64,000 nucleotides of DNA, taken from the NCBI GenBank assembly GCA_050951585.1, contig JBMNJI010000005.1:16206-80205 (forward strand), read 5' to 3'. The stretch is from Peptococcia bacterium (lineage in GTDB: Bacteria > Bacillota > Peptococcia > DRI-13 > DTU073). The position numbers and the translations under genes are program-made. A model generated the notes under the pieces. It ran no database searches, was not told the DNA's origin, and was given only the letters and a program-made list of their open reading frames with translations. Shown one piece after another: positions 12,470 to 50,292 of the stretch. The stretch's first letter is position 1; every line of letters begins with the position of its first letter.

Positions 12470-12639
12470 ACAATGACCGGATGCTGCTGGTAAACTAGGC
12501 TAGTAGTGTAGTACTGAGTACTGTACGGTTAATTAGCTGGGAAAGTGACGGGTAAGTGATGGAGGAAAGCGGGTCTAATAAAGTGATATATTTTCCATCG
12601 GACATATAATATAATATTCGTAATAATATATAAGCTTCC

Positions 12640-13590: not shown

Positions 13591-13737
13591 CGGCTGACGT
13601 TTAGCGGGCTGAACCCAAAACATGAAAAACACCTCGTTCCGCTTTTTTGATATGCTACCTAACATATCATTTTTCCGTGGAGCGAGGTGTTGATATTTTG
13701 ATAATAACTTCATTATCCCATCGACAATTCCAAGGGG

Positions 13738-15315: not shown

Positions 15316-15550
15316 TGGTCTCACCTCATTTCATATTTTAATCATAGGGAAAACTTTTATCTTTGTCAATATATATTATAAGTATACTTTAAATGATTTA
15401 TACACATTTTAAAAGTTTGGGCACAAAATTTCAAAAACAGGTTAGCCGGAAAAATTTGCACGAAATAATTGGGTAATATTGACATTACTAGAGAAAAGCA
15501 ATAAACATGATATAACAAAAATAAAAGAAAAATTATAAAGGGGAGTGTGA

Positions 15551-16290: not shown

Positions 16291-16353
16291 ATTGCTGATC
16301 CATATTTTTAAATAAGCGGGATCTAAGTTGTGGAAAAGTAAAGGAGTGGTAAA

Positions 16354-18686
16354 GTGTTAACCAAATTGAGGAAGAAATTTGTTTTCTTCTGGCTCGTTTT
16401 CGCTTTGGTTTTGTGTTTCTTCGCGGTGCCTGTTTTTGCGGCAGGAGAAACTACGATGTCGGGGCATATCAACAACAGGCAATCTGAATTTGACGGTACG
16501 CAAAGTCAATGGGCCGAAGCAGACCTGCGGGAGGCCTATTCCCTTGGACTGACTTATGACCAGGTCGAGCAAAATTATCAGCGGCCGATTACCCGCGAAG
16601 AATTCTGCGTGATCGCGGTGAAGCTTTATGAAAAACTGAGTGGGACCATCGCAATTCCAGGGAACAATCCGTTCGTGGATACGACAAATCCGGAGATTCT
16701 GAAGGCTTATGCCGTTAGAATAGTAAACGGCACGTCCGCGAATACTTTTTCACCTTCAGCGAGCATTACCGTCAAGAGATTTGTTGTATGATCCTAAATG
16801 CCTTAAAGGCAGCTCAAACCAAACCTTGATGCCAGCCCCCGGCAGCGATTTTCCTTTTAATGATGCCGGTGAAGTGGCTTCATGGGCTCTCAATTCCATG
16901 AAATTGCCTATCGCAACGAGATAATGAGAGGAACAGCAGCGGGAATCATTTCTCCGTTAAGTAATACGACGCTGGGAACAGGCGGTTATCCTGTTAAAAC
17001 GTACTACAGCAAATATGTCGGAAATAGTCAGTCCCGGAGCAAGGAGCGCTTCTTGAGAATCTCGACATCAATGATCTTTATGCCAAGATGCAGGAGCACC
17101 GTTCACCAGGGATCCGCAGGCGAATAATAACAACATCCATCCGTCCTTTTCCGCCAATGCTTCCGGTGGGGTATCGGTGACACCAATAACGGGATTGGGG
17201 ATTATTGGTGATTTGCAGCCGAACATTGGGACCCCCTCACTGGGCGAAGGCTCATCCGCATTAGATGAGCTTTCCTCGGGGTTCCCACTTAAACCAAGTG
17301 AATATGATCTTGCGGGTATAGATTATCTGGGCAGGGGCTATAACATTATTACCGGGAAGTATGCCGATGGCAACAGTGTCAATGATTATGTCCTGAGTAT
17401 TAACAAGCTTTTAAACAGCCAACGGGTCTATAAATTAGATGCCAGTGCAAGTGACAGTCGGTTTGTCAGGGGAAGCAGTGTCCATAAATATGCCGAGCAT
17501 ATGGCCACGTCAATTGGCGTCAGCGGAGGATACCTTTTCTTTAGCGGAAGCGTGACAACAAACTTCAGTTCCTCCTCATTAACGGAAACTAATCGGCAAT
17601 ATGCGACGCTGATCTATGAGGCGCCCCAATATTGTGTTTACTTTGATGACCGGAATTTGAATTTCAGTGACTTTTTAGATCCGGCTTTTAAGCAGGCCGT
17701 TAACGATCCCAATGTGAAACCGGCGGAGCTTTTTGAGTTTTACGGCACTCATGTCCTGCGGTCTGTCAGAATGGGCGGGCGTCTGGAGTATAACGCTACG
17801 GCCAATAGTACCTATAACAGCCAATCTCATAATTTTGAGCAGGATGTAAAGGCTTCCTTTAACGCTCTATTCGCTTCGGCGGGAGTCAATGTACAGAATA
17901 GCAGCAGTACGACCAGTGAAGCATTTACGCAACACTGTGAGACCAAAATTAAAGCTTATCCGGCCTATGGTGCCGGGGATTTCAATCCCGCAGCTTTCCA
18001 GCAGTGGTTTAACAGCCTCCAGACAAAACCGGGGATTAGCGATTTTGGGCCCAGACCCTTGATCCCGATTTATGAGCTGGCCTCCACCCCCGCCAGACGG
18101 CAACAGCTCAAACTAGGTTATGAGGAATATGCGGCTAACCATCAATATATTCCGGCCGCAGTGGTCCACTGCATTACGGGATTCGCCTGCACGCTTATAC
18201 TGTAGCTGATGCTTTGAGCAATAATATTCCGGCGTTTATGTGGATCCTACTACCGGTCAACCTGGAAACTGGTTTCCAATATTTCGCCGCACATGATGCA
18301 ACCGGGTGATACACTGCAACATATTTATGTACGGGAAGGAGCCAGTGATAATGCCCAAAATCCACCGGTTGTGGCTGTTTTCCTGGTCAATGAAACCCAG
18401 GGGGAAAATGCGCAAACTATCTTTAAGCATTTTTGGGGGAATGATCCACGGCCCGCCTTTGGGAGTTGGAGCGGAGCTTCCGCCCAATTCCGGACTGCAG
18501 AATTATGTGAGCGCCTTGCCGGTTGGAGATAAGTTGAAGCTCTACTATGTGACCAGCACCAACGAACGCCCAATCACCCAATTGCGCGTAAGGCATATAG
18601 GCAGGGACGGGAAAACTTATTATTTCCCCAGTAATACGGAGATGGATTCATCCTTTTATACGGTATTTGACGCGGGTCGATCATGA
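16354..18686 (+). pseudogene. Surface protein with signal peptide, SLH-like repeats, a MACPF domain and a C-terminal domain; at least 6 frame breaks
   Basis: ORFs 16354..16791, 16882..17127, 17177..18205, 18293..18532 and 18306..18686 join into one collinear protein only by switching frames. Confidence 0.6.
17177..18205 (+). CDS. MACPF (membrane attack complex/perforin) domain segment
   Basis: MACPF signature YGTHVLRSVRMGG ([YW]-G-[TS]-H-x-x6-G-G), plus the N-terminal LGRGYNIITG motif typical of MACPF domains. Confidence 0.75.
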   Translation: MTPITGLGIIGDLQPNIGTPSLGEGSSALDELSSGFPLKPSEYDLAGIDYLGRGYNIITGKYADGNSVNDYVLSINKLLNSQRVYKLDASASDSRFVRGSSVHKYAEHMATSIGVSGGYLFFSGSVTTNFSSSSLTETNRQYATLIYEAPQYCVYFDDRNLNFSDFLDPAFKQAVNDPNVKPAELFEFYGTHVLRSVRMGGRLEYNATANSTYNSQSHNFEQDVKASFNALFASAGVNVQNSSSTTSEAFTQHCETKIKAYPAYGAGDFNPAAFQQWFNSLQTKPGISDFGPRPLIPIYELASTPARRQQLKLGYEEYAANHQYIPAAVVHCITGFACTLIL

Positions 18687-18836
18687 AGGGTGAATTTAAG
18701 CCCCAGGACTGCGCGGAGGGAACTCCCGACAGTTTCGGCCTTTTCGGGCTTCACAGATTTACTTTCCTGGAGTATTCGTACGAGTAATAGCCCATAGCAA
18801 GACAAACTGGTAAGTGTTTACTTAAACAAAGTGCAA

Positions 18837-18887
18837 AGCCATCGGTCGGGAGTAGTGAGATGATAGTGCCCGGCCGGTGGCTTTTTT
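18837..18887 (+). terminator. Rho-independent terminator
   Basis: Stem AGCCATCGGTCGGG / CCCGGCCGGTGGCT followed by T6. Confidence 0.6.
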
Positions 18888-19394
18888 ACCGATGGCAGCT
18901 ACCGGGGAAGAAAATAAAGGAGGTTGAAATATTTAGTCGAATATATTTTAAGAAGTCAAAAAATAGGTAAGAGGGTCGCAAAATGGAATTATTGCAATGT
19001 AATAAAAGAGATTAATCCCGACTATTTAAGGTTCGTTAAAGGATTTACAATAAATATCCCCAATATAAGGATAGTTCAACACCTGTTTTAAAGCAGTTTT
19101 TGTACAAGCGAGGAGCTTTTTGCAGTCGTCTGGAAATTACGCTATGATGGTAAAAAAAGGCAACAAAATTATTGCAACTTGCATGTATATCATTTCCAAA
19201 AGCTATGAGAAGGTACTGCAGGTTGCTTTTTTTTGACCGATGGATTGTTCAGCAGAAGATCGTAGCGAGTGGTACCGGATAGACGAGTTGCTTAGTTCCC
19301 TTTGATAAAAGGCTTTAATGTTCCCTCTTCAATATCCTTCAGGACATCCTGCCATACTTCCTCCGCATCCCCAATGATGACACTGTTTTTATAT

Positions 19395-19701
19395 TCTTAC
19401 CCCAATCCCCGGAACGGTCTTCTATCATGAAATGAAGAAGCAAAAGAGGATCTACAATGAGGAGATCTATTCTTATAATGGAGCCGAAGCGGTGCATCTG
19501 CCGAAGAATATGACACCGGAGGAGTTGACGGAGGCTTATTGGACCCTGTATAGGAAAGTATTTACATATAAAAACATTCTGCGGAGAACGATCCTGCATC
19601 GAGGTTTTTTCAAAAAACCTGGAAATTGCTTGTTTTATTTTACCGTCAACTTGTATTATCGCAAGCAGATCAAGGAACGGATAACCCCCAATATTATTTA
19701 G
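19395..19701 (+). pseudogene. C-terminal remnant of a B12-binding-type radical SAM protein
   Basis: ILTPIPGTVFYHEM.. / ..MTPEELTEAYWTLYRKVF resembles radical SAM C-terminal regions. No intact N-terminal part exists, and the upstream 19.0-19.4 kb reads as out-of-frame fragments. Confidence 0.4.
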
Positions 19702-19906
19702 AAAACCTTGTTACGCACCAGCCCTAAATATACTACTATAAGATCATACTATTACGAATGTAGGCAATATTCATTATGGTATAATGTTATGTAGTAAATT
19801 AGTATTTTTGTGGGGGGTAATGAACAGAACACGCTGGCAAATATAAAAAAATCATATTCCGGATACAACACCAGGAAAATTCGGATACAGGGAGGAGAGG
19901 CTTAAG

Positions 19907-30264: not shown

Positions 30265-31965
30265 TTGTTCGGTAAGATTATTTTCGTGACGGCTCTTTTA
30301 GCCGGCTTGTCCTTCCTGGTTTTTAAACTGAATTATCATTTTCATATGCTGCAATTGAATTCATATATGAACGGTCGCTATTTATTGTGGCTCAGACGAA
30401 ATCCCGGCAAGGCATTCCGCCCCGTGGATTTTCTGCCCTTTTTTGTTCTTCTGCCGTTTGTGCTGCGGCTTTTGGCTCCTGAGACGGAAACGGCCGGGAT
30501 ACTGCCGGTCGTCTTGTATGCGGCCTTTGGAGCAGTATCGCTCGGCTTAATCTTTTTTCGGGAAAAAACGAAAGCGAAAAAGAAGATCAAATATACGGCC
30601 AGGGTGAAGAGACTGTTTACCGCCGCCGCGTTGTTGTGCCTCCTCCTTTTCGGGGTGCTGTGGCAACTTCAGGCGGAGCCTTTGCTCTTCCTTTTGCTGG
30701 TGGGCTTCTTGCAGCCTTTTGTGGCCGGACTGGTTTTCGTCAGCAATATCATCCTTATCCCTGTGGAAAAAGGCATCAACTATTATTATTTCCGGGATGC
30801 CCAGAAAAAAGTGCAGGCCATGCCCCATTTAAAAGTAATCGGCCTTACCGGCAGTTATGGGAAAACCAGCACGAAACATATCGTGCAGAAAATCTTGTCC
30901 CAGAAATATAACGTGCTGATGACGCCCGGTAGCTATAACACGACCATGGGGGTTATTCTGACCATCCGGCAAAACTTGAGTCCGCTTCATGACTTCTTTA
31001 TCATGGAGATGGGGGCGAAAAAGCCCGGCGATATTACGGAGATTTGTCAATTGGTGCAGCCGGACTACGGGATTTTAACGTCGATTGGGCCACAACATCT
31101 GGAGACTTTTCAGACGATCGAGAACGTGCAAAAAACCAAATTTGAATTAATCCGGGCTCTGCCTTCCGCAGGGTTTGCCGTGGTGAATGGGGATGATGCC
31201 TGCATCGCGGCAGGCAGGGAACGATACGGGAACAAGGAGCTCCGTTATATTTCCTATGGAATTGCCGAGGACGAGAGCGCGGCTGTGGGTGCGGAGGAAC
31301 CGTGCGGCACGGCCAAGACCGCTTTTGCGGAGAAACCGGCGCAGAAGGTGCAGTTCAGAGCAACAAAGATCAGTTATTCCGAAAATGGAACGGAGTTCAC
31401 GGTTGTGCGCAGCGGGGCTGGGGAAGAACAGGAATATTCTTTCCGCACCGGCTTGCTGGGGCAACACAACCTGTACAATATTTTGGCCGGGATTTCCCTT
31501 GCCTTTACCCTCGGCATGGACTATAAAGCGATTTATGCGGGCGTAAAAGACCTTACCCCCATTGAGCACCGTTTGCAGATCAAACGCCAGCACGATTATG
31601 TGCTGATTGATGACGCCTATAATGCCAACCCTGTCGGGACGCGCATGGCCCTGGAGGTTTTGCGGCTCATCAGCGGCAATAAAAAAATTCTCATTACGCC
31701 CGGCATGATTGAATTGGGCAGTCAGGAATACGAGTTGAATAAGGCTTTTGCCCGGCAGGCGGCCGAGGTTTGTGACTATATTCTGCTGGTCGGCGAAAAA
31801 CGCACCCAACCCTTGCAGGATGGCTTGCGGGAGGCAAATTATCCGCCGGAAAAATATACGGTGGTCAAGGATATTTTCACGGCTTTTGCTCACCTGGAGA
31901 AGATTCGGGAGAAGAATGACGTCGTCTTAATTGAGAATGATTTAACCGACGATTATGATGAGTAG
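30265..31965 (+). CDS. murF: MurF-type UDP-MurNAc-tripeptide--D-Ala-D-Ala ligase with a ~170 aa N-terminal membrane domain
   Basis: GLTGSYGKTSTK P-loop and the MurF-typical IDDAYNANP. The first ~170 aa form 4-5 hydrophobic helices in place of the usual Mur N-terminal domain. GGAGG RBS before TTG 30265. Confidence 0.7.
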   Translation: MFGKIIFVTALLAGLSFLVFKLNYHFHMLQLNSYMNGRYLLWLRRNPGKAFRPVDFLPFFVLLPFVLRLLAPETETAGILPVVLYAAFGAVSLGLIFFREKTKAKKKIKYTARVKRLFTAAALLCLLLFGVLWQLQAEPLLFLLLVGFLQPFVAGLVFVSNIILIPVEKGINYYYFRDAQKKVQAMPHLKVIGLTGSYGKTSTKHIVQKILSQKYNVLMTPGSYNTTMGVILTIRQNLSPLHDFFIMEMGAKKPGDITEICQLVQPDYGILTSIGPQHLETFQTIENVQKTKFELIRALPSAGFAVVNGDDACIAAGRERYGNKELRYISYGIAEDESAAVGAEEPCGTAKTAFAEKPAQKVQFRATKISYSENGTEFTVVRSGAGEEQEYSFRTGLLGQHNLYNILAGISLAFTLGMDYKAIYAGVKDLTPIEHRLQIKRQHDYVLIDDAYNANPVGTRMALEVLRLISGNKKILITPGMIELGSQEYELNKAFARQAAEVCDYILLVGEKRTQPLQDGLREANYPPEKYTVVKDIFTAFAHLEKIREKNDVVLIENDLTDDYDE

Positions 31966-32051
31966 AAGCACGAAAAAGGAAGTGAACAGTGAGAGCAGGA
32001 AGTGGGTCGTGTGAAATAAATAGTGGGAAGAAGATGGGAGGTCGGATTGAA

Positions 32052-33215
32052 TTGAAAATTAAAGTAGGGGTGTTTTTCGGGGGGAAATCAACTGAGCACG
32101 AAGTGTCGGTCATTTCGGGAATTCAGGCCGCACATAGCTTAGATAAGGAAAAATATGAGGCAGTGCCTGTCTATGTGACCAAACAGGGGACTTTTTATAC
32201 TGGGGCGGAGCTCCTGGATATTACCGAGTATAAAGATATGGAGGCACTATTACACAAAGCCACGCCGGTAGCCATCATCAGGGATCAGGAGCAAAATAAG
32301 GTTTTCCTTTATAAGTATCCCTTCGGGCTCTTTAAGAAGCCCCTTGCTTATCTGGATGTGATTCTGCCGGTGATGCATGGCAATCTCGGCGAAAACGGCG
32401 CGTTCCAGGGCTTTTTTGAGGTGCTGGACATCCCTTATGCCGAATGTGGGGTCCTTCCTTCTGCCGTGGGCATGGATAAGGTGATCACGAAATATGTCCT
32501 GCGCAGTGCCGGTATCCCGGTAATCGACTGGTACAGCTTTTACGGTCATGACTGGCTCACTGACGAGACCAGGCTCATCGAGGAAATGGAGGAGCAGATC
32601 GGCTACCCCTTAATTGTGAAGCCGGCGACAGGTGGCTCCAGCATTGGCATTTCCATTGTCCATAACCGGCAGGAGCTCAAAGACGGGGTGGAATTAGCCC
32701 GCTCCATGGCGGAAAAGATTATTGTGGAAAAACTGGTGCAGAATATTAAGGAGGTCAACTGTTCGGTGCTTGGAGACAGTGAGGATGCGGAGGCTTCTGT
32801 CTGCGAAGAGCCGGTCAGCAGCAAGGATATCCTCTCCTTTGACGATAAGTATAGCAACAACAGCACCAAAGGGATGTCGGGCGCGAAAAGAAAGATTCCG
32901 GCCGATATATCCGCGGAGATGGCCGGTGTCATTCAGGATCTCTCCCGGATTGTCTTTAATCTTTTAGGTTGTAAAGGCGTAATTCGCATTGATTATATTA
33001 TTGATCAGGACACCAATCAGGTTTACCTGAATGAGCTGAATACCATCCCCGGTTCGTTGGCTTTTTATCTCTGGGAGAACAGTGAGCTTACCTACGCCGG
33101 GCTCCTGGATCAATTGCTGACAATGGCGATTCGTCATCACCAGAAGGCGAACGCGTTAACCTATTCCTACGAGAACAATCTTTTCAATTCGGGGATCCAG
33201 GGCTTCAAGAAATAG
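32052..33215 (+). CDS. ddl: D-alanine--D-alanine ligase
   Basis: KIKVGVFFGGKSTEHEVSVISG N-terminus and an ATP-grasp core (IVKPA.GGSSIGI, ELNTIPG). GGAGG lies 9 nt before TTG 32052. ATG 32034 or GTG 31989 are alternative starts. Confidence 0.85.
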   Translation: MKIKVGVFFGGKSTEHEVSVISGIQAAHSLDKEKYEAVPVYVTKQGTFYTGAELLDITEYKDMEALLHKATPVAIIRDQEQNKVFLYKYPFGLFKKPLAYLDVILPVMHGNLGENGAFQGFFEVLDIPYAECGVLPSAVGMDKVITKYVLRSAGIPVIDWYSFYGHDWLTDETRLIEEMEEQIGYPLIVKPATGGSSIGISIVHNRQELKDGVELARSMAEKIIVEKLVQNIKEVNCSVLGDSEDAEASVCEEPVSSKDILSFDDKYSNNSTKGMSGAKRKIPADISAEMAGVIQDLSRIVFNLLGCKGVIRIDYIIDQDTNQVYLNELNTIPGSLAFYLWENSELTYAGLLDQLLTMAIRHHQKANALTYSYENNLFNSGIQGFKK

Positions 33216-33501
33216 CAGGCTAAAGGGAATATTGCAAACCATACGACAAAGTGGAAATAAAAGGAAACAAGGTAAGATTGGGCGAAAAAAAGATTATGGA
33301 AGCGTTTTCTAAATATATAGGGAAATAGTGTCAGAAAAAAATATGGGTTAGTTTTAGAAAAAAGGGCAGTGCCAGAAACGGCGCGGCCCTTTCTTTATGG
33401 GCATTTGCGGGCGACAAGGACAAAGGGAGAAAAATATTTGACAAATTCCAGTAAATGACAAAGTTTACAAATACCATCATGTATAATACGGGGTGTGAGT
33501 A

Positions 33502-33543
33502 TTTTTTTGATTTACGTAAGGCGCGCTACGTCAGTCAAAAAAA
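33502..33543 (+). promoter_or_regulatory. 17-bp imperfect inverted repeat in the leader of the first TasA-like gene
   Basis: TTTTTTTGATTTACGTA, an 8-nt spacer, then TACGTCAGTCAAAAAAA (15/17 complementary). It lies downstream of an extended -10 TGTATAAT (33480-33487) and upstream of the RBS at 33631. Confidence 0.4.
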
Positions 33544-33645
33544 GGAGGCGATCGGTAAGAGAATTCTGTTAAAGGATTTAACAGGACAGCAAAAGTTGAT
33601 GCAATCTTTTTACTGAAAAAATAGGAATTGAAGGGAGTAATGAAA

Positions 33646-34312
33646 ATGAAAAAAACAAGAATGTTACTTGCTACTCTGGTTTGTGCTGTAATGCTGATGG
33701 GCGTTGGCTACGCCGCATGGTCTGATTCGGTTACCTTGGCAGGAACGGTGAATACCGGGGAACTGAATGTACGTTTTGAAAATGATCAGTTTGAGCCATT
33801 TGTTCCTACCACATATGCAAGTGGTTATGCGACGGCAGTTTTCAACAAACTTGAAGAAGAGAATATTGAATTCACTTTTGACAAATTACACCCCGGAGTC
33901 GTTGGCGTTGTTGATGTAGCCGTTAAAAATGCCGGTGATTTTCCGGCTAAATTAGCTAATGCAACTGTAATCACTACGGGTGATGAAGTATTAAAAGACG
34001 ATATTTATGTGCAGGCCTTGTATTACAAAATGGGAACCAACGGTTTACCTGTCTGGGAACATTCAACGCTACCCCATATGTTTCTCTTGATCAATTAGAG
34101 ACAACTTTAGAAAATGCTTTAAGTGCTTTTGAATTGGCACCCGGGGAATCAATTGTCTTTGGTGTTCCGGAAGGCGAAGAATCAACTCTTGATTTAAACA
34201 ATGACGGTGTAAATGAAGAGTGCTTTATCTTCTACTTTGACTATGATTCCGGTAATGAAACAATGGATAAGACCATTACTATTGATTTAGAGATGGATTG
34301 GGAAATTGCGTA
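33646..34312 (+). CDS. TasA/camelysin-like secreted protein A (SipW-type signal peptide); one frameshift near 34060-34080
   Basis: AAGGGAG RBS, then ATG 33646. MKKTRMLLATLVCAVMLMGVGYAAWSDS. Internal LHPGVVGVVDVAVKNAGDFP. The shifted frame continues ..NATPYVSLDQLE..ITIDLEMDWEIA to TAA 34312. Confidence 0.8.
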
Positions 34313-34349
34313 ATCACTAATACGGCGCTGAATTGAATTATCATCCTGC

Positions 34350-34381
34350 AGACCCGCCACCTTTTTGGCGGGTCTTTTTTT
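34350..34381 (+). terminator. Strong rho-independent terminator after gene A
   Basis: Stem AGACCCGCC / GGCGGGTCT followed by T7. Confidence 0.8.
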
Positions 34382-34559
34382 AGCTATGAGGGAGTATTAG
34401 TTTTGGGTAATACAAAGATTATTTCCGGACAAGCCTAATAACGACAATATATACAGAAAAAGTAAGATATAATATTAAACAGTATAGAAAGACAAAGTCA
34501 AAGTAATCTATTATTCTGCTCTTTACTTTATCTAAAGTTGAATGGGAGGGTTATTGGCG

Positions 34560-35194
34560 ATGAGACGATATCTGATACTATTATTGGGTTGCGTCTTCTG
34601 GGGTTTGGCGATAGTGCCGGGGGTATATTCTTCCTGGCAGGACCAGTTATACATCAGAGGGGAAATCCGGCTAAATGATGTTTCTCCTCTACGTTCTGTC
34701 GAACAGGGATCAGACTCAAATCTAGCACGGAAAGTGGATGAACATAAAGGTACTGTGGCGGGGACGGGAGAAGTGCCGGACCATAAAGCGGAGGAAGGGA
34801 GAGGTTGCGGAAGAACTGGAGACGGGATTTCAAGCAGTGCCTGCAGCAGTGTTCGAGGGCAGTACCCGAAGCAGGAATTAAAGAAAGCCTTCCAGTGAGC
34901 GAGCCGGTTGTAGCAGAAACGACAGGAGGCAGTGCAACGGCAGATTCGGCAGTAACCGGGGAAGACCCTGGGCAGGATCCAAGCGAGGCGATAACTAATA
35001 CTGTAACTGATGATATCATCGGAGATACAGCAGGGGAAGCAACCGAAGAAATAACCGAAAGCAGGGGTGAAACAGCAGGGGAAGCAGCTTCTGAAACAGT
35101 CGAGAAAAGCGCTGATGTAAAGGCGGAGAATGAAAACAATAATGCGGCGGCAGAAGCAGGAGGAGAAATGGAAACCGGCGCTGGAGCAGAATGA
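34560..35194 (+). CDS. Signal-peptide/N-terminal-strand-only protein B with an acidic low-complexity tail; probably two frameshifts (~34800, ~34865)
   Basis: GGGAGGG RBS, then ATG 34560. MRRYLILLLGCVFWGLAIVPGVYSSWQDQLYIRGEI. The three reading frames join as ..EEGR/EVAEELETGFQAVPAAVFEGST/PEAGIKESLPVSEP.. into a T/G/E/A/D-rich tail ending at 35194. Confidence 0.55.
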
Positions 35195-35261
35195 AGCACA
35201 AAAAGTCGCAAGAATAATTATTATAGAAGAAAATGTAAATTAAAATTTTCAGCTATTCTTA

Positions 35262-35296
35262 AAGGACTGTCCCGATGTGGCCAGTCCTTTATTTTA
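35262..35296 (+). terminator. Terminator after gene B
   Basis: Stem AAGGACTG / CAGTCCTT followed by a T-rich tract. Confidence 0.7.
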
Positions 35297-35398
35297 AGTA
35301 TTATAGAAAAGAATAAAATATTTTTTAATTAGCAACTAAAAACGACAAAAATTTCAATTGCGATTATATATAATATCTAGTAATATAATGTCTAGTAA

Positions 35399-35974
35399 GT
35401 GAAAAAGGGAGAGGCGGAATCAATTGTGCGTTTTTTCTATCCACTTTTCAGTATAATCTTCATATTCTGCATGGGCGGGTTTGGGATCAGTTACGCCACC
35501 TGGAGTGATACCTTAACATTAGAAAGCACCGTATCTACCGGTTATATTAATACCATTTTTACTGATGCTGAATTATCAAAGAACGGCAATGAGGGAGAAG
35601 GGAAAGGAAATTGTCGGGGGGGATCTGGTTCAGACGCGGATTTTGGAACAGTTGTTATTGATGAAGACGGCAAGAGTCTTTTGGTCAGCATAAAGGAAAA
35701 AGGGAACTACTATCTGGATTTTACGCTTGAAAATAAAGGGACATTACCTGTCGAAATTGAGATTCCTGATACGAAGGGAAAAAAGCCCGATGGCGAAGGA
35801 CAAGCCATTAAGATAGAGTTTAAGGATAAAGGAAATAAAGAGGACCGGATACTATTCGTTGATGACAGTATGCAAGGTCGTATGGAGATAAAAGTGCAAC
35901 CTCCTCATTGGAAAGATGGTTTGGAGGGTAACTTTTCAGTTACGCTCGAATCTCGCCAGGCGAGTCTTAAATAA
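35399..35974 (+). CDS. TasA/camelysin-like secreted protein C
   Basis: ..FIFCMGGFGISYATWSDTLTLESTVSTG. Internal YYLDFTLENKGTLPVEIEI. The start is GTG 35399 or in-frame GTG 35426. Confidence 0.7.
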   Translation: MKKGEAESIVRFFYPLFSIIFIFCMGGFGISYATWSDTLTLESTVSTGYINTIFTDAELSKNGNEGEGKGNCRGGSGSDADFGTVVIDEDGKSLLVSIKEKGNYYLDFTLENKGTLPVEIEIPDTKGKKPDGEGQAIKIEFKDKGNKEDRILFVDDSMQGRMEIKVQPPHWKDGLEGNFSVTLESRQASLK

Positions 35975-36125
35975 ACAGGCGCTAAGTTGATATTTGAGGT
36001 GCAATAATTTATAAGGGGGGAGTACATCAATATTAAGGAGATAAGAGAAGCACCTTTAATTAAATTGACAGCATTGTAAATTCAGAAAAGTATATAGTTT
36101 TTAAAACGAAGGGAGATCAAAAACA

Positions 36126-36653
36126 ATGAAAAAAGCAAGACTTTTAATTGCTGCATTAGTATGTGCAGTAATGATGATGGGAGTAGGTTATGCCTTATTT
36201 AACGACACTACTGTTGTATCTGCAACAGCAAAGGCGGGTAACTTTGATGTGGATTTTATTGACGCAAGAGGTCCAGTGGAAGTTAGTCCCGAAAATGTAA
36301 GAGTTTACCTTGATAGAGATAATTGTGATCAGGATTTACTCCATTGCACAATTAGTGGTATATTTCCAGGTCAGACGGTAGTAATCCCCATTCCTGTTAA
36401 AAACAACTGTGCGGTAGGAGCAAAATTAGTTAATGTTGAGTGTAAACGTGTTAACGGAGACTGGGGCTTATATAATCAATTCCAGATTTCTGGTGAGAAT
36501 AATAAAAAAATAGCTGCTGGGGCAAGTGACACCTGTAATTTAACAGTTATGTTAAATAGTGAAACTGATACCAAATACCAAGAACAAACGGTTGAGTTCA
36601 CAGTAGATCTAGAATGGGAACAATACCTAAAGACAATAAATACCCAATCGTAA
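36126..36653 (+). CDS. TasA/camelysin-like secreted protein D
   Basis: AAGGGAG RBS. MKKARLLIAALVCAVMMMGVGYALFNDT. IFPGQTVVIPIPVKNNCAVGAKL. C-terminal VEFTVDLEWEQ. Confidence 0.85.
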   Translation: MKKARLLIAALVCAVMMMGVGYALFNDTTVVSATAKAGNFDVDFIDARGPVEVSPENVRVYLDRDNCDQDLLHCTISGIFPGQTVVIPIPVKNNCAVGAKLVNVECKRVNGDWGLYNQFQISGENNKKIAAGASDTCNLTVMLNSETDTKYQEQTVEFTVDLEWEQYLKTINTQS

Positions 36654-36679
36654 ACATAACCTAACTATGTCTTTTAATT

Positions 36680-36713
36680 GCAGGATGGGCAAATGCTCAT
36701 TTACCCATCCTGC
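36680..36713 (+). repeat. Conserved 34-nt hairpin, copy 1 (after gene D)
   Basis: GCAGGATGGGCAAAT-gctc-ATTTACCCATCCTGC. It has no downstream U-tract; an A-run follows instead. Confidence 0.75.
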
Positions 36714-36757
36714 CGTAAAAAAATTTATATTTACTTAATGAAGGGAGAACAAAAGTA

Positions 36758-37303
36758 ATGAAGAGAGCAAGGATTTTAATTGCCACATTAGTGTGTGCAG
36801 TAATGATGATGGGAGTAGGTTATGCAGCATTTACCGACAGTCTAAAATTAAATGCATCACTGGCAACGGGTACTATGAATGTAATTTACGGAACAGATAC
36901 AAAAGTTGATAGAGCTGACAGTGAAGTAGTAGCTACTGTTACACGTTCTGACGATAAGAAGACCCTTGATTGCACAATTGCAAACTTATATCCTGGGCGG
37001 GGTGCAGTTTTTAGCATTCAGGTGAAAAATCTGAGTGGTGTGCCTGTAAGCTATACCAACTGTATACCTACCGGATTAAGCGAGTACGAAAAGAGCATTC
37101 TTGATTTTGATTTCGCTAGAGATGATTACAACGCTGAGATTCCGGCAAACGGTGAGCGCACTTATAAGGTTTTCGTCAGACTGAGCGAAGACGTTGATAA
37201 TACTGTGCAAAACAAAACTTATACATTTCAACTTAGATTTGATTGGGAACAAGTTATTCAAGACAGTGTAACCCAAGGTTTACCTATAGGATCCGCGAGT
37301 TAA
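36758..37303 (+). CDS. TasA/camelysin-like secreted protein E (close paralog of D)
   Basis: AAGGGAG RBS. MKRARILIATLVCAVMMMGVGYAAFTDS. LYPGRGAVFSIQVKNLSGVPVSY. C-terminal YTFQLRFDWEQ. Confidence 0.85.
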   Translation: MKRARILIATLVCAVMMMGVGYAAFTDSLKLNASLATGTMNVIYGTDTKVDRADSEVVATVTRSDDKKTLDCTIANLYPGRGAVFSIQVKNLSGVPVSYTNCIPTGLSEYEKSILDFDFARDDYNAEIPANGERTYKVFVRLSEDVDNTVQNKTYTFQLRFDWEQVIQDSVTQGLPIGSAS

Positions 37304-37340
37304 TTAGTATTGTCTGAACTGAGGTTTAATTCCGTTGGGT

Positions 37341-37374
37341 GCAGGATGGGCAAATGCTCATTTGCCCATCCTGC
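37341..37374 (+). repeat. Conserved 34-nt hairpin, copy 2 (after gene E)
   Basis: GCAGGATGGGCAAAT-gctc-ATTTGCCCATCCTGC, a perfect 15-bp stem that is near-identical to 36680..36713. Confidence 0.75.
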
Positions 37375-37433
37375 CATAATAAAAACTATATTAATTTGAG
37401 AGTGCTTAGCGTACAATTGGAGGTTATCTCGTC

Positions 37434-38342
37434 ATGAAAAAATATATTACTATTATAATGATATGTTCGTTCCTGGGATTAGCAATGATTCCGGGAGTAT
37501 ACTCCGCTTGGGGAGAATCGTTACAGATCACGGGAACTGTGCAGATAGGCGAAGACGACATTGAATGCCCTATTCCGGAGTGTAAAAGGATATGGAACTT
37601 AATATTAGCGATGCTTAATGATATTGATAAATGTTCCTTAAGGGATCTTCTCGCTTGTGAAGACGATTTTGACATAGCTGCATTAATAGCGTTTCTTGAA
37701 GACATAGACAGTATTGATGATGGCATTATAAGCAACCTTAAATGGCTAGAAGGTTTTAATTTCGGCGGTTTTTCCGGTTCTAATGGAACGATGATGCTTG
37801 CCGGTGGGGACATGGAAATGATGACAATTCCGCAGGAAACACAACAGCCAGCCGCACCGCCTGTACAGGCGCCCTCGATGCCACCGGAAGGAGGGCAGGA
37901 TATTGCGGATAATCATAAGGGAAATACTGCCCAGGAGCGTACAACGGGGGATACAGCGGGAGGACCAGCGGATGCTGGTGACACCGGCGACAACGGACAG
38001 CAAACTGAGGATAATATAACGGATAATACCGGCGGCGCTGATCTTCTCGGCGCAGGTGATCCTGTTGGTGCAGATGATATTGTCGATGATGGCAATGATG
38101 TAGCCGGTACAGGGAATGACACTATTTCCAAAGGTAATGATCCTGTCCCTGAGACAACGGGGGAAAGCGGCCGGGAAGATGGGACGGCAGAGAGCGGTGC
38201 CGGTGATAAGAGCGGTTCCGGGAGCGCAGAAGGAAACAGTGATGATACCGGCAATAAAACCAATGAAGGAAACAGCGCTGGTGGCGCTGGCAACGATGGG
38301 GAATCCGGTGCAGGGAACAGTGATAGTACGATAGAGGAGTGA
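37434..38342 (+). CDS. Signal-peptide/N-terminal-strand protein F with a Cys-containing helical segment and a ~170 aa acidic G/D/T/N/E-rich tail
   Basis: GGAGG RBS. MKKYITIIMICSFLGLAMIPGVYSAWGESLQITGTVQIG. The tail has no hydrophobic core. Confidence 0.75.
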   Translation: MKKYITIIMICSFLGLAMIPGVYSAWGESLQITGTVQIGEDDIECPIPECKRIWNLILAMLNDIDKCSLRDLLACEDDFDIAALIAFLEDIDSIDDGIISNLKWLEGFNFGGFSGSNGTMMLAGGDMEMMTIPQETQQPAAPPVQAPSMPPEGGQDIADNHKGNTAQERTTGDTAGGPADAGDTGDNGQQTEDNITDNTGGADLLGAGDPVGADDIVDDGNDVAGTGNDTISKGNDPVPETTGESGREDGTAESGAGDKSGSGSAEGNSDDTGNKTNEGNSAGGAGNDGESGAGNSDSTIEE

Positions 38343-38411
38343 GCAGAGGGGAAATTAGCAAAAATAAATGAAAAACACAGGGGGACAACCGGGTTTGACG
38401 GATGGAGGCTT

Positions 38412-38654
38412 TTGCTGCTGAGAAAATATCTGAGATTGATTCTGCTTTGTGTTATTGGCGGGCTGTTGCTGATTCCGGGCACCGATGGGAGTTGGAATCA
38501 GGTCCTGGATGTGGAGGGGCTCGTGAGGCTTCCGGATAATTACATATTTGATGAGGTAGTGAGTCAAGATGGCCATAAGGCGCTGGATTTTGCTAGGGAT
38601 GGTTTCGTTCATGATTATACTGACGAATACGAACCTCATTCCCTTGACGAATAA
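38412..38654 (+). CDS. Small signal-peptide/N-terminal-strand protein G
   Basis: MLLRKYLRLILLCVIGGLLLIPGTDGSWNQVLDVEGLVRL shares the motif of B and F. The TTG start has poor SD spacing, so the start is uncertain. Confidence 0.5.
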   Translation: MLLRKYLRLILLCVIGGLLLIPGTDGSWNQVLDVEGLVRLPDNYIFDEVVSQDGHKALDFARDGFVHDYTDEYEPHSLDE

Positions 38655-39735
38655 TATTAATTTTATCTATTTTGGACGACCACTTCTATGGTTCGGTGTG
38701 GCCGCGACAGTATACTGCTTTCCGCGCACCAGGGCAGCCGGCCGTTTGAGTTTACGCCGCTTTGTGCTTAATTTGGCGATTGGGGCAGCGGTTATCAATA
38801 TCCTCTTTATGATGGTGGGGGGAATGATTACGGGCTTGGGCAAAAGCCCTTATGCGGTGGGACTGGTCACTTCAACGATTAATTTTATATACATTTCCTG
38901 TTTTGTGCTGGGACTGGAGGCAACACGCTCGTTTTTAGTCAACAGTTATAAAGGGAAAAGAGCATATCTTACAATTGCCCTAGTCAGTTTTTTCTATTTG
39001 TTTACTGAAATCTCTTTGGGGGAAATTCTGAATTTTAGTAACGGTTTAGAGTTTGTGCGTTTTTTTGGGAGTGAGTTTTTACCTGCTTTGGCCCAGAGTA
39101 TTTTAACTACCTATTTTGCTTTTCTGGGCGGATTTGCTCCGGCGGCGGTATTTCACGGGATTTTGCTGGCTTTCGAATGGTTCAGCCCGATCTTACCTGA
39201 TTTAACGTGGCCGATGAAAACTTTTCTGGGTTGCTTCATTCCAGCTTTTTCCCTGCTGGTGGTGCGGCATTTCTATCTGTTACAGGCCCACCAGATCAAA
39301 AGAAATTCTTCAGAAAGTGAAGAATTATTCGGCTGGCTGGTGACGAGTATTATTTCGGTAGCGCTGATTTGGTTTGCCGTCGGTATTTTCCCGATTTATC
39401 CTTCCGTGATTGTCACCGGTAGTATGGAACCAATGATCAAACCGGGCGATCTTGTTTTGGTGCAAAAAATCGACGGGGAGAAGGTTTGTCTCAATGATGT
39501 GATTCAGTATTATGATCCCGAAAGGGAGATTAGTATAACCCATCGGGTAATTGCCATTAATCGGACAGACAAGATAACGCTGACGACCAAGGGAGACAAT
39601 AACACATCTGCAGATACGGATTCGGTTTTATTAGGACAGGTAAAGGGAAAGGTCCTTAAGGTTGTCCCCAAAATGGGTTGGCTGACCCTTTTCTTAAGGA
39701 GTAATCAGCCGATTCCGGAAGGGGTAGAGAATTAA
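38569..39735 (+). CDS. Polytopic membrane domain fused to a SipW-type (ER/archaeal-type) signal peptidase I
   Basis: C-terminal VTGSMEPMIKPGDLVLVQK, ITHRVI and TKGDNN match the Ser-His SipW class. The N-terminal ~270 aa hold about six hydrophobic helices. The start is uncertain (ATG 38569/38599 or TTG 38644), and the ORF overlaps gene G. Confidence 0.8.
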   Translation: MAIRRWILLGMVSFMIILTNTNLIPLTNNINFIYFGRPLLWFGVAATVYCFPRTRAAGRLSLRRFVLNLAIGAAVINILFMMVGGMITGLGKSPYAVGLVTSTINFIYISCFVLGLEATRSFLVNSYKGKRAYLTIALVSFFYLFTEISLGEILNFSNGLEFVRFFGSEFLPALAQSILTTYFAFLGGFAPAAVFHGILLAFEWFSPILPDLTWPMKTFLGCFIPAFSLLVVRHFYLLQAHQIKRNSSESEELFGWLVTSIISVALIWFAVGIFPIYPSVIVTGSMEPMIKPGDLVLVQKIDGEKVCLNDVIQYYDPEREISITHRVIAINRTDKITLTTKGDNNTSADTDSVLLGQVKGKVLKVVPKMGWLTLFLRSNQPIPEGVEN

Positions 39736-39767
39736 CACGAGGAAAGTGTTTGATAGGGGGAGTTTCA

Positions 39768-40946
39768 ATGGTAGAACTGGTAAAAAAGGTCAAAAAAGTC
39801 GGGATGCCGTATCAGCTTAGGCTTTTCTTGCTCAGTATTGTTTCGGTGGTCTTCCTCGCTTTACTTGCTGCGCTTCTGGTGAACAGCATGGGTCCGCGCA
39901 CGGAGGAGCAGGAGATTACGAATTATCAGTATCACCAAAAGGGGGAAATCACCTATGAGGTCGCTTTAAACGATAATCTGCTATACGGGAACAAGGTCCT
40001 GGGCATGAATAATGTTTATCCTTCTAAATATGTGAAACAGGTTACGGCCGATCTGAAATATGATTTTAACGGTAATAAGCGTGGCACAGTCTCCGGGCAA
40101 TACATGGTTGTGGCCACGGTTCAAGGCATTCAAATGGAAAACCAGGCGGAAAAAGTTTTGTGGAGTAAAGATTTTGTCCTAGAACCGGCGACACCCTTTT
40201 CGGATGAGGTCACGGAAACAAGCCGGGTCATTATGCAGAAAAAGCTGGTGATCCCGTTCCAGGACTTTAATGCGTTTGCGCTCCAGGTGCAGCAGGATAC
40301 CGGGATTCTCTCCAGTGTTGCTTTAAAAGTGAAGTGCCTGATCAAGACAGAGGCGGAGACGGAATACGGGATGATTCAGGAAGAGCTCACGCCCGGTTTT
40401 CGCTTGCCTTTGTGCATGACCTATTTTGAGATTACAGGAGATTTGACCCAGGAGAAGGAAGGGGCTTTGACGGAAACAGTCATGCAAAATATTCCTCCTA
40501 ACCGCACTCTGTTAAGGGTTTTGGGAGGCGGCGCCGCCCTTTGTTTGCTGTTGCTTTTGGGGTTGCTCTTCTTTGTCCGGGGAACCAAACCGGATGCATA
40601 TCAAAAGCGGATTAAGGAGATCTTTAAAAAATATGAGGAAAGACTTGTTGCTTTAGGACAGGAATTACCGGGAGACGCGGCGGTCGGAAAGAAGGGGACT
40701 GTTAGTACGGAGAAGTATATCCGGGTGAAAACGGTCGACGACTTGGTCCGTGTCGCCGATGAAATAAGTCGGCCGGTCTATTATCTGGAGCGGGGACTTG
40801 CGGGGGAGAAAGGTTTCACCTTTTATGTCATCAGTGAAACGAATATCTTTACTTATGAGCTTAAGCCGACTCCGGGCAGTAAGACTTCCCCTATGCAGGA
40901 GGAGCAATATCCCCAAAAGCCGGGACAACAAGACATCAAACTCTAG
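39768..40946 (+). CDS. Bitopic membrane protein, DUF5305-like
   Basis: GGGGGAG RBS, then ATG 39768. N-terminal TM (LFLLSIVSVVFLALLAALLV), a ~210 aa extracytoplasmic domain, a second TM (GGGAALCLLLLLGLLFFV), then a ~115 aa cytoplasmic tail. The family assignment is by recall of the architecture and its adjacency to a signal peptidase. Confidence 0.65.
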   Translation: MVELVKKVKKVGMPYQLRLFLLSIVSVVFLALLAALLVNSMGPRTEEQEITNYQYHQKGEITYEVALNDNLLYGNKVLGMNNVYPSKYVKQVTADLKYDFNGNKRGTVSGQYMVVATVQGIQMENQAEKVLWSKDFVLEPATPFSDEVTETSRVIMQKKLVIPFQDFNAFALQVQQDTGILSSVALKVKCLIKTEAETEYGMIQEELTPGFRLPLCMTYFEITGDLTQEKEGALTETVMQNIPPNRTLLRVLGGGAALCLLLLLGLLFFVRGTKPDAYQKRIKEIFKKYEERLVALGQELPGDAAVGKKGTVSTEKYIRVKTVDDLVRVADEISRPVYYLERGLAGEKGFTFYVISETNIFTYELKPTPGSKTSPMQEEQYPQKPGQQDIKL

Positions 40947-40999: not shown

Positions 41000-41150
41000 A
41001 TGGAGAGCATTATATTTAGTGACAATTGCGGCGATTAATCTAATCGCCGCTTTTCTTATGGGGCTGGGTATCCCCTTTTTCCAATAGGGATGCCTTGTTT
41101 GCTCGCCTTTAATATGGTCTGCTTTTATTACCTGAAGGGCAAGACTTTCT
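41000..41150 (+). pseudogene. Internally deleted remnant of a DUF1294 gene
   Basis: GGGAGAG RBS plus ATG 41000. Blocks 41028-41060 and ~41072-41139 match the intact copy at 43266-43300 and ~43433-43500 (last 68 nt ~91% identical). About 125 nt of the middle are missing. Confidence 0.6.
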
Positions 41151-41264
41151 ACTAATGTGTTAATAATATGAAAAAGCAGTTTATTAATAAAATGTTGTAT
41201 AATATATTCAGATGTTATGATATAAAAAGCAGTGCAAAAAAGAAAAAAGAGTGGGGGATTGATT

Positions 41265-43283
41265 ATGAATTTTCTTTCGATGGGAAAAAGGCATAGGGTG
41301 TTGGTTTTGCCGTTGCTGCTTTTCTGTTTGCTTTGACTGACTGTATGTACAGAGGAGGTAGCTGCTTTTAGTGGTACAGGGAGCGGAGGCATAGCTGATC
41401 CGTACATAATATTGACGGCGGAGCAATTGAATGAAGTCAGAGAGGAGCTGACCGCTCACTATCAGTTAGGGGCTGATATTGACCTGAGTGTATATGAAAA
41501 TTGGGTGCCAATTGGGGATTGGGAAAACAGTTTTACCGGTTCTTTTGATGGCAACGGTTATGTCATTAGTAATATGACCATCGATATGCCTGAGGAATAT
41601 TATTTAGGTTTATTTGGAGTTGCGTGGGGCGGGTCTTCATTAAACAACGTAAAATTAGAAAATGCAAGTGTGGTTGGAGCCGGATGTGTTGGAGGTTTAG
41701 CAGGAGATTGCGCAGCAAATACGGTAAATAACTGTTCAGTAAGGGGTAGGGTAACTGCACTCAGCGATTCTTATGCGGGTGGGCTGATTGGGGGAAGCTC
41801 CAGCGAAGTCAACAACTGTTATATGATCGGAGAAGTAGCAGGCAGAAGTGCGACAGGTGGACTACTGGGCGGAAATAACAATGAGATTAGAAACTGTTAT
41901 GCGATAGTTAGTGTATCTGCACCGGCATCTAATTATGTGGGTGGTTTGGTTGGAGAGAATAACGATAGCATTATAGACTGTTATGCTGTCAGCGCGGTAA
42001 TTGGTAATCGACAGGTGGGAGGTTTGGTCGGGCGCAATAGTGATGTAATTAGGAACTGTTTTTCCGTTGGCAGTGTAGAAGGAGTGAATTATTGCGGTGG
42101 ATTAGCCGGTACATCTTCTTATATGGCAGAAAACTGTTATAGCCATAGTAGCGTGTCAGGAAGTACTAATACCGGTGGTTTAATTGGGGCCGATTCTGCT
42201 ACAATTACGAATTGTTATGCTGCCGGGTTGGTGACCGGTGAAGGCGAAAACTTTGGCGGATTATGCGGCGATGCTGATTCTATTATCACTTCCTCCTATT
42301 ACGACTCAGATACTACCGGGCAGACCGATGAAGGAAAGGGTGTCGGAAAAACAACGGATGAAATGCAACAGCAAGGTACTTTTGGCGGCTGGGATTTTGC
42401 TGAGGTTTGGGGACTGGTTGCCGGGAAGAATGATGGTTATCCGTATTTGTTAGCTTTTGCGGATAATGAGGCGGATTTAGCTGATTTATCCGTGAGTGCG
42501 GGGACCTTAAGCCCGGTTTTTGCTGACACGGAACGGGATTACACGGTCAATGTGGCATACGGTACGGCTGTTTTGCAGGTAGTTCCCGAGTGTGAGGCTG
42601 AGACTGCTTCATTAGCGGTTACTGTCAACGGAGAAACCGTATCCGCGACTGAAGATGCTTATGCGGCGCCCCTCAATGTGGGGGAAAACCTGATCCGGAT
42701 TGTGGTCACAGCGGAAGATGAGATGACCGGTACGGTCTACCGGCTTAGGGTTAACCGGGGCGAGGCGGATACAAACGCGGATTTGGCTGGTTTATCCTTA
42801 AATGAAGGTAATGTGCCGTTAGAGTTTACCGGAGATATAACCGGTTATAATCTTACGGTAAGTAACAAGGTGCGCAGCCTGTCGGTGAAGCCGGTAACCG
42901 TAGAGGAGACGGCCGTCGTGACAGTCAATGGGGTAGCAGTTAGCAGTGGGGAAAACTCAGAGCCGATTGCCCTGCGGACTGGCAGTAATGTGGTCACCAT
43001 TCAGGTTGTGGCCGAAGATGGGACGGAAAAAACATATACATTGAACATCAAGCGAAAACACAAATCGCAGACCAGCACAACGAGCATAACCGAAGAAACC
43101 GAAGAACAGCAAACCCCGGAAGAAGAGGGACAAGCTGACAACCAGGCAAGTAACGATGATTCCGGACTAGCCGATAACCACAAAAAACCAGGCAGTACTG
43201 GATATGACAATATTCAATGGGGAGAATTTATAAAATGGCTACTTTCAAATCTTTCGAAATTGGCATTGTTGCGATTAATCTAA
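41265..43283 (+). CDS. Secreted GLUG-repeat protein with cadherin-like beta-sandwich domains; in-frame TGA at 41334-41336 inside the signal peptide
   Basis: ATG 41265 is in the same frame as the 41412 ORF (MNFLSMGKRHRVLVLPLLLFCLL*LTVCTEE..). Repeated GGLAG/GGLIG/GGLVG..NCY units, then ADLADLSVSAGTLSPVF and ADLAGLSLNEGNVPLEF domains. Confidence 0.7.
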
Positions 43284-43513
43284 TCACCTTTTTTCTCTGC
43301 GGCCTCGATAAGTATAAAGCACAGCGGGGGCTGTGGCGGATTCCGGAAAAGAGCTTTCTGCTTATGGCTGCCGCCTTCGGGGCGGGTGGTATCCTGGTTG
43401 GGATGAAGGTATTCCGCCATAAGACAAGACATCCCCTTTTTACAATAGGGATGCCTTGTATGCTTGCCTTTAATCTGGTCTGTTTATATTACCTGAAGGG
43501 CTTTTTGTTTTAA
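43235..43513 (+). CDS. DUF1294 family small membrane protein
   Basis: GGGGAG RBS, then ATG 43235. ..FFLCGLDKYKAQRGLWRIPEKSFLLMAAAFGAGG..FRHKTRH is the typical DUF1294 signature. Confidence 0.75.
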   Translation: MATFKSFEIGIVAINLITFFLCGLDKYKAQRGLWRIPEKSFLLMAAAFGAGGILVGMKVFRHKTRHPLFTIGMPCMLAFNLVCLYYLKGFLF

Positions 43514-50287: not shown

Positions 50288-50292
50288 AACAA

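Follow-up and report, generated by a model that had tools for sequence, protein, structure and literature searches.

The window analysed here is a 64-kb stretch of DNA from a Peptococcia bacterium (DRI-13; DTU073), located on contig JBMNJI010000005.1 of assembly GCA_050951585.1. Downstream of ddl, it contains nine open reading frames (ORFs) in one orientation (33646-40946), which are designated genes A to I. Four of them encode predicted beta-sandwich subunits (A, C, D, and E), three encode donor-strand-only proteins (B, F, and G), and the last two encode a dedicated signal peptidase I (H) and a DUF5305 protein (I). Fibres of the TasA superfamily are the protein scaffold of Bacillus biofilms and of archaeal bundling pili. 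The locus in the window probably encodes an extracellular fibre from the AbpX clade of this superfamily, assembled by donor-strand complementation, together with the machinery that processes its subunits. The initial annotation of the region, which had proposed a TasA-like fibre locus with several substrates and a dedicated SipW-type peptidase, is borne out in this general form by the profile matches of the subunits, by the TIGR02228 match of the peptidase, and by the SEC11-like fold of its catalytic domain.

All features of the locus lie on the plus strand. Gene A (33646-34313) encodes an AbpX-like subunit that is 222 residues long if intact, and gene B (34542-35194) a donor-strand-only protein whose tail is acidic and of low complexity, 216 residues long if intact; both genes are split in the window. 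They are followed by gene C (35426-35974), encoding a small "C-type" AbpX-like subunit of 182 residues when read from a GTG codon within an ORF that is open from 35399, and by genes D (36126-36653) and E (36758-37303), which encode AbpX-like subunits of 175 and 181 residues, the latter being strain-variable. The product of gene F (37434-38342) is a donor-strand-only protein of 302 residues with a cysteine-containing helical stretch and a long acidic tail. The putative gene G (38412-38654) is a short donor-strand-only ORF of 80 residues. Gene H (38569-39735) encodes the dedicated signal peptidase I of 388 residues, and gene I (39768-40946) the DUF5305 protein of 392 residues with two transmembrane segments. 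Genes F, G, H, and I are closely packed, with I beginning 32 nucleotides (nt) past H, and this block is closed by an intrinsic terminator at 41028-41058. The G+C content is 0.36-0.41 over genes A to E (33500-37500), compared with 0.45-0.51 in the flanking genes.

The seven predicted substrates of the peptidase (A to G) share an N-terminal organization, in which an n-region containing lysine or arginine and a hydrophobic core precede the pattern small-x-[WF]-x-[DEQ]. A scan of every ORF of the window for this motif returns these seven, all on the plus strand, and seven scattered unrelated ORFs, mostly on the minus strand. Therefore, the cluster is not a chance pattern. Position 2 of the predicted mature proteins is tryptophan or phenylalanine in all seven, and position 4 is aspartate or glutamate in six: the pairs are W2/D4 in A, B, and C, F2/D4 in D and E, W2/E4 in F, and W2/Q4 in G. 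Residues W2 and E4 are critical for the donor strand of AbpX (bioRxiv 10.64898/2026.01.04.697558), and the window proteins conform to this rule, apart from Q4 of G. The predicted mature N-terminus of subunit D, LFNDTTVVSATAKAGNFDVD, retains F2, D4, D18, and D20. At position 18, which binds Ca2+ in AbpX, only subunit D has aspartate, and A, C, and E have asparagine. The N-terminal motif of the seven substrates visibly resembles the SipW-cognate signal pattern noticed in the initial annotation; however, every one of them stays below the cut-off of the corresponding model TIGR04088 (19 bits), with scores of 17.5 for A, 16.7 for D, and 10.1 for E, and no match for B, C, F, and G. No twin-arginine motif occurs in the substrates of the window, the n-regions of which read MKKTR, MKKAR, MKRAR, and MKKY.

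A word-indexed protein search with subunit D returned D alone. Because single-sequence searches failed, the subunits were harvested from related loci and compared by profile searches. Eighty related loci were collected via their peptidase, 252 candidate substrates were extracted from them, and 71 A/D/E-like proteins were aligned. The best solved relative of the window subunits identified with the resulting 71-sequence profile is AbpX of Pyrodictium abyssi (9sj2_C, E 8.6e-18; 9rhp_A, E 6.6e-12). Similarity to TasA of Bacillus subtilis is remote and detected by the profile only (TasA fibre 8aur, E 2.5e-5; TasA 5of1, E 2.7e-5). The AbpX and TasA matches alike cover most of the domain. The intact A protein, represented by its ortholog from the comparison contig L003, matches AbpX 9sj2 on its own with an E-value of 0.002. 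The C-type subunits belong to the same group, as their profile aligns to that of the A/D/E-type with an hhalign probability of 99.7 (E 2.4e-26) and matches AbpX with an E-value of 1.9e-9. Judged by these profile comparisons, the nearest relative of the subunits is AbpX and not canonical TasA or camelysin. The description of the subunits as TasA-like can be kept insofar as the profile matches both AbpX and TasA, but AbpX is the closer of the two, and the curated TasA and camelysin models are not passed.

An AlphaFold2 model of subunit E has an all-beta sandwich fold (predicted local distance difference test score of 82), in which the N-terminal strand, residues 22-37, is disordered. A disordered N-terminal strand is expected in the model of an isolated subunit that needs the strand of a neighbour.

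The small proteins could instead be secreted matrix or adhesin proteins that do not polymerize, or camelysin-like proteases of the Peptidase_M73 family. A few family members carry a precomputed match to Peptidase_M73 (PF12389), and one TasA-like paralog of Clostridium perfringens, BsaB, forms dimers only (PMC11580942). Within the window, subunit D comes closest to this model, to which the initial annotation had looked for confirmation, with 19.9 bits, and E reaches 12.0 bits; however, the cut-off is 22.5 bits, both matches are confined to the signal peptide region (residues 7-46), and A and C do not match at all. The metalloprotease variant was rejected, as the HExxH motif is absent from A, C, D, and E. 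Furthermore, the closest solved relatives of the subunits, AbpX and TasA, are fibres, and the donor-strand residues are conserved. We consider a non-polymerizing or proteolytic function to be quite improbable. Some homologs have been named [quoted passage not shown] by JGI (the Joint Genome Institute), which would make the products precursors of ribosomally synthesized peptides with a SipW-like leader. The subunits, however, are folded domains of 175-222 residues, and the locus contains neither a modification enzyme nor an exporter, so that this interpretation deserves hardly any credence. Polymerization into a fibre of the AbpX type remains the preferred reading of the subunits.

The donor-strand-only proteins B, F, and G belong to a recurrent kind of strand-plus-tail protein found in the related loci. 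In these proteins, the signal peptide is followed by x-W-x-[K/E/D]-x-L-x-I-x-G-x-I-x-V, often by P-D-P, a P-x-P turn, and a short helix, and then by a tail rich in glutamate, aspartate, serine, asparagine, and glycine. Neither the strand-plus-tail proteins in general nor F in particular contain an LPXTG motif, an SLH domain, or a C-terminal transmembrane segment. The mature part of F contains 57 acidic residues (D+E) and 11 basic ones (K+R). By a heuristic count, a strand-plus-tail gene immediately precedes that of the long peptidase in 41 of 69 loci. The source organism of the window has this component tripled (B, F, and G): by the likewise heuristic per-locus counts, three strand-plus-tail proteins in the window compare with never more than one in the 50 comparison loci, which are those with full flanks. 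The strand-only proteins may occupy the single groove that stays open in a fibre, and in this way prime, cap, or tether it. They are not discussed in the main text or supplement, figures aside, of the preprint that describes AbpX (bioRxiv 10.64898/2026.01.04.697558).

The presence of a SipW-type peptidase, as initially annotated, is supported by the score of H against TIGR02228, 78.2 bits with a cut-off of 51.85. By contrast, H reaches only 59.7 bits against the Bacillus SipW equivalog model NF046067, for which the cut-off is 190. On these scores, H is classified as a SipW-type peptidase and not as an ortholog of SipW. Its S26 peptidase domain, formed by the last ~120 residues, is of the endoplasmic reticulum (ER) or archaeal type with invariant residues S271, H311, D329, and D335. 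The catalytic domain has a predicted SEC11-like fold, and its best Foldseek matches are SEC11A/C (7p2q and 7p2p, E ~1e-4).

The N-terminal ~250 residues of H, which were not mentioned in the initial annotation, form a polytopic domain, modelled as approximately eight long helices followed by a transmembrane segment that precedes the catalytic domain. This N-terminal domain (window 38569-39350) has an invariant E-x-x-R pair and the invariant motifs G-x-S-P-Y and S-P-x-L-P-x-x-x-W. It matches no Pfam or NCBIfam model, and no Pfam match was found in 32 members even at E-values of up to 10. It is conserved in at least 630 homologs, and a survey of 1.84 billion representative sequences yields 549 clusters of it at 50% identity. 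Nearly all of the cluster members are 380-440 residues long; therefore, the N-terminal domain is fused to the peptidase. A kinship with the CPBP/Rce1 family was considered on the basis of one weak Foldseek match to the CAAX protease Rce1 (4cad_C, E 0.07, TM-scores of 0.31 and 0.41). As no histidine is invariant in the domain, this kinship is kept as no more than a lead. The polytopic domain of H may couple cleavage to assembly, beyond anchoring the peptidase in the membrane.

Protein I matches DUF5305 (PF17231) with 95.3 bits against a cut-off of 29, in agreement with the family to which it had been provisionally compared. Two hydrophobic segments (residues 11-43 and 246-275) flank its ~200-residue domain, so that the protein, which had been described as bitopic, has two membrane segments. 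By analogy to described systems, I is proposed to assist the signal peptidase as an accessory subunit (bioRxiv 10.64898/2026.01.04.697558, PMC11821415).

The structure of the AbpX fibril has been determined, and AbpX-like proteins form a clade of the TasA superfamily that has members in Bacillota (bioRxiv 10.64898/2026.01.04.697558, January 2026). AbpX assembles by donor-strand complementation, with Ca2+ at the interface of strand and groove; the associated signal peptidase I has ten transmembrane helices in bacteria and archaea alike, and in most abpX loci there are also genes for tip proteins, for AbpX-like minor subunits, and for a DUF5305 protein that is an accessory of the signal peptidase (bioRxiv 10.64898/2026.01.04.697558). 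The window locus resembles those of the AbpX clade in its dedicated polytopic signal peptidase I, its DUF5305 accessory, and its extra AbpX-like minor subunits. The locus of P. abyssi is minimal, with abpX and the signal peptidase, whereas that of the window has four subunits and three strand-only proteins. Described bacterial abpX loci often include SLH or LPXTG anchors, histidine kinases, cyclic di-GMP enzymes, and a Spo0A-like regulator, none of which are present in the window locus. The bacterial examples given in the preprint include Natronincola peptidivorans and Clostridium amylolyticum (bioRxiv 10.64898/2026.01.04.697558), and the loci of both species were independently retrieved by the peptidase scan (L039 and L062).

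Like the window locus, the tapA-sipW-tasA operon of B. subtilis encodes SipW-type signal peptides, whose cleavage site, a predicted one in the window proteins, precedes A-[FW]-[NS]-D. TasA (8aur) and the window subunits have in common a beta-sandwich and polymerization by an N-terminal donor strand, both of which are predicted for the window proteins, and an ER-type signal peptidase encoded in the operon. TapA uses a strand to engage the subunit (PMC10151520) and offers the closest parallel to B, F, and G. Unlike H, however, SipW of B. subtilis has ~190 residues and two transmembrane segments and lacks a polytopic domain, and a DUF5305 gene is absent from the B. subtilis operon, which has a single subunit gene in place of the four in the window.

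Tat-fimbriae of haloarchaea (TafA/E, TafD, TafG) are likewise built by strand donation from several pilins (major, minor, tip, and anchor), and have a dedicated multi-transmembrane signal peptidase, TafD, and a DUF5305 protein, TafG (PMC11821415, PMC12337348). Deletion of tafD blocks the processing of the pilins and the formation of fibres (PMC11821415, PMC12337348). These fimbriae differ from the window system in being archaeal and exported by the twin-arginine translocation (Tat) pathway, and their pilin fold has been described as distinct. Moreover, TafD has four transmembrane segments and carries its extra domain at the C-terminus, unlike H, in which the polytopic domain is N-terminal.

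The clostridial operon sipW-bsaA-bsaB-bsaC of C. perfringens is similar to the window locus in its dedicated signal peptidase, SipW, and in the presence of more than one TasA-like paralog (PMC11580942). BsaA forms surface-attached polymers by strand exchange (PMC11580942). Its strands, however, are locked by isopeptide bonds, one of the operon's products is a von Willebrand factor A (VWA) protein with a dependence on type IV pilus genes, and neither a DUF5305 gene nor a polytopic peptidase domain has been reported for it (PMC11580942). The initial annotation had not been aware of a characterized locus of comparable composition; this view has been overtaken, since bacterial abpX loci have already been described (bioRxiv 10.64898/2026.01.04.697558) and the C. 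perfringens operon is a characterized multi-subunit case (PMC11580942). The kind of locus is already known, and that of the window adds a subunit-rich case to the AbpX-type loci of the TasA superfamily.

In the assembly pathway that we propose, the pre-proteins would be exported by Sec, and H, with I as its accessory, would cut them after a small residue (GYA or VYS). The cleavage would expose the donor strand x-[W/F]-x-[D/E]-x-h-x-h, and each strand would enter the open groove of the next subunit; as in AbpX, Ca2+ at the acidic fourth residue would probably assist this step. Subunit A is likely to be the major one because it is encoded by the first gene, which has a strong terminator of its own, and because it is the most conserved subunit. 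C could be a conserved minor subunit, and D and E fast-evolving interchangeable variants. B, F, and G would donate a strand but could not accept one; therefore, they would occupy the open groove at one end of the fibre as a cap, primer, or anchor that displays an acidic disordered tail.

Several observations weigh against assigning the locus to a donor-strand-assembled fibre of the AbpX type. For bacterial AbpX-type loci, there is no observation of a filament, of cleavage, or of polymerization. No single protein of the window passes the curated TasA-family models PF12389 and TIGR04088. A Foldseek search of the PDB with the monomer model of E gives generic beta-sandwich matches with E-values above 1e-3; TasA 8aur ranks 21st (E 0.043), and AbpX is not among the 50 matches listed. 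The roles proposed for A, C, D/E, and B/F/G are derived from gene order, conservation, and domain logic, and are considerably less secure than the assignment of the locus as a whole. The status of G as a gene is less certain than that of the others, because its TTG start codon is only 3 nt past the ribosome-binding site and the ORF overlaps H by 86 nt. Finally, A, the proposed major subunit, and B, one of the proposed caps, are broken in the window.

The interruption of A, which like those of B was missed in the initial annotation, is caused by a 1-nt deletion in the G run at 34055, as a result of which the frame 33646-34098 ends with the stop codon at 34096-34098, and the remainder of the gene continues in another frame to 34313. 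Gene B contains two 1-nt insertions, in the G runs at 34803 and 34857. The window was aligned to the contigs L003 (JGI 3300060804) and L002 (Logan SRR28624434), which come from independent metagenomes and are ~99.4% identical to it, and both A (at least 218 residues) and B (216 residues) are intact in the two contigs. The three frameshifting indels lie within 0.8 kb in two adjacent genes. The other indels that distinguish ~17 kb of the window from the short-read contigs are all outside annotated functional genes: those at 41219-41525 are in or just upstream of an ORF with GLUG repeats, 43239-43248 is an in-frame difference of 9 nt, and one is at 50291. Mismatches to L003 within A to I are concentrated in A, with five in 175 nt, at least two of which change the protein. 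Phase variation at the frameshift sites is unlikely, because the G runs are just 1-4 nt long.

The locus may be partly decayed, with A and B as true pseudogenes. Any fibre still made would then be a reduced one, built from C, D, and E and having F, perhaps together with G, as its strand-only protein. The clustering of three indels in 0.8 kb is unlike what is expected from uniform sequencing error, and B has been hit twice independently. Genes have been lost or reduced at the same site in close relatives: A is missing from L089, in which fragments of a C-type gene and of a tail gene are present, and in L090 a 43-residue remnant occupies the slot held by B in the window. Broken genes also occur elsewhere in the window, as shown by the fragmentary ORFs at 12.5-19.9 kb. 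On the other hand, the position of all three indels in G runs is typical of errors in assembly or base calling, both genes are intact in the two independent assemblies, and A is otherwise the best-conserved subunit. The G-run indels look like assembly error and their clustering looks like decay; we regard decay as possible, but would not favour it. For the fibre reading to apply to the sequenced strain, either the three G runs would have been misassembled or the fibre would be made without A and B.

The region 12470-19906 contains only short fragmentary ORFs and has either many pseudogenes or many errors; this is relevant to the interpretation of the frameshifts in A and B. For example, the minus-strand ORFs 13738-14211 and 14192-14533 resemble one split gene, as do the ORFs 16354-16791, 16882-17127, and 17177-18205.

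Genes D and E are similar at their ends and divergent in between. Their DNA is ~80% identical over the first 120 nt, which include the ribosome-binding site and the signal peptide, and 82-88% identical over a 58-nt hairpin repeat at the 3' side (copy 1 at 36679-36736 after D, and copy 2 at 37340-37397 after E), whereas the identity is just 20-60% between these parts. Gene E together with one copy of the repeat (window 36732-37339) is absent from the near-identical contigs L001 and L002, in which the deletion joins the two 58-nt repeats. The junction is internal to the repeat, and E therefore acts like a cassette that recombination adds or removes.

Rearrangements of the locus are also present in its relatives. 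In a related Peptococcia metagenome-assembled genome (MAG), a gene of the A type and a gene for a 202-residue subunit have been duplicated in tandem (L007:3745-7520 and L010:3673-7448); gene calls for L007 place a truncated C-type fragment between the duplicated copies. Conservation differs between the components: A is 84% identical to its ortholog in L090 and the peptidases are 71% identical, while the D/E-type subunits share ~28%. In L090 and L091, the peptidases of which are 71% identical to H, a fragment encoding 184 residues from the C-terminal part of a DUF5305 protein (12471-13025 in both) follows their own DUF5305 gene, and is almost identical to the C-terminal half of I from the window. 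This fragment points to an earlier event in which the entire locus between ddl and DUF1294 was replaced.

Relatives with the long peptidase were found in 224 species-level genomes, mostly of Clostridia and Peptococcia, and the best match to the window peptidase among species genomes is 69% identical and comes from an uncultured Peptococcaceae MAG. The recurrent gene order is a C-type subunit, a strand-plus-tail protein, the peptidase, one to three larger subunits, and DUF5305. With seven predicted substrates, compared with one to six in the 50 comparison loci, the locus of the window is distinctive only in degree.

The terminator after A (34350-34382) is canonical, with a 10-base-pair G+C-rich stem (34350-34375) followed by seven uridines, a folding energy of -21.2 kcal/mol, and a z-score of -3.0. 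The initial annotation had described canonical terminators after both A and B; the one after A is confirmed, whereas the structure after B (35260-35297) is a hairpin with a U-rich tail (-17.3 kcal/mol, z -3.6) that the consensus terminator scan does not list and that is a probable terminator. The hairpins noted after D and E are indeed present within the 58-nt repeat, with z-scores of -4.4 and -4.3, but they are not followed by a U run, and their classification as canonical terminators was rejected for this reason. As strong hairpins without a U run, they are more likely to be stabilizers or leaky stops. A search of Rfam identified no riboswitch or other known RNA in the locus, apart from a lone match to a small RNA at chance level (E 0.69). 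Separate control of the levels of individual subunits, as put forward in the initial annotation, is plausible, and the fibre might be switchable.

The structure of the AbpX branch has been solved for just one hyperthermophilic archaeon, and its bacterial members are without experimental study. The window reveals no new kind of system; it provides a compact and unusually rich test case from an uncultured Peptococcia-like anaerobe, with four paralogous subunits, three proteins that would only donate a strand, and one subunit that is naturally present or absent between strains. It lets one ask how fibres start, and how they are capped or anchored without SLH or LPXTG, and it also bears on the role of the extra membrane domain of the peptidase. 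A more far-reaching proposal combines three elements: that the strand-only proteins are an unrecognized core component of AbpX systems, that the D/E cassettes serve alternative fibres, and that the peptidase domain couples cleavage to assembly. We consider this combination doubtful. If it were true, alternative fibres would arise by the gain, loss, or exchange of D/E cassettes between conserved 5' and 3' repeats.

The locus is preceded by a murF-like gene (30265-31965) and by ddl (31989-33215), which is upstream of gene A. The initial annotation had placed nine co-oriented genes between ddl and a remnant of a DUF1294 gene. The nine ORFs are as described; however, the DUF1294 gene (43217-43513) matches the whole Pfam model and is intact, and a GLUG/cadherin-like ORF of 623 residues (41412-43283, plus strand) intervenes between I and DUF1294. 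This ORF has a TTG start and no signal peptide, and its 3' end overlaps the start of DUF1294. L001 and L002 lack 1.24 kb of this ORF (41810-43049) and have a 194-residue gene at that position. At a distance from the locus, the window contains a T-box leader (RF00230; 9118-9369, plus strand) upstream of the ORF 9492-10673, which scores 113.6 bits against a gathering score of 93.

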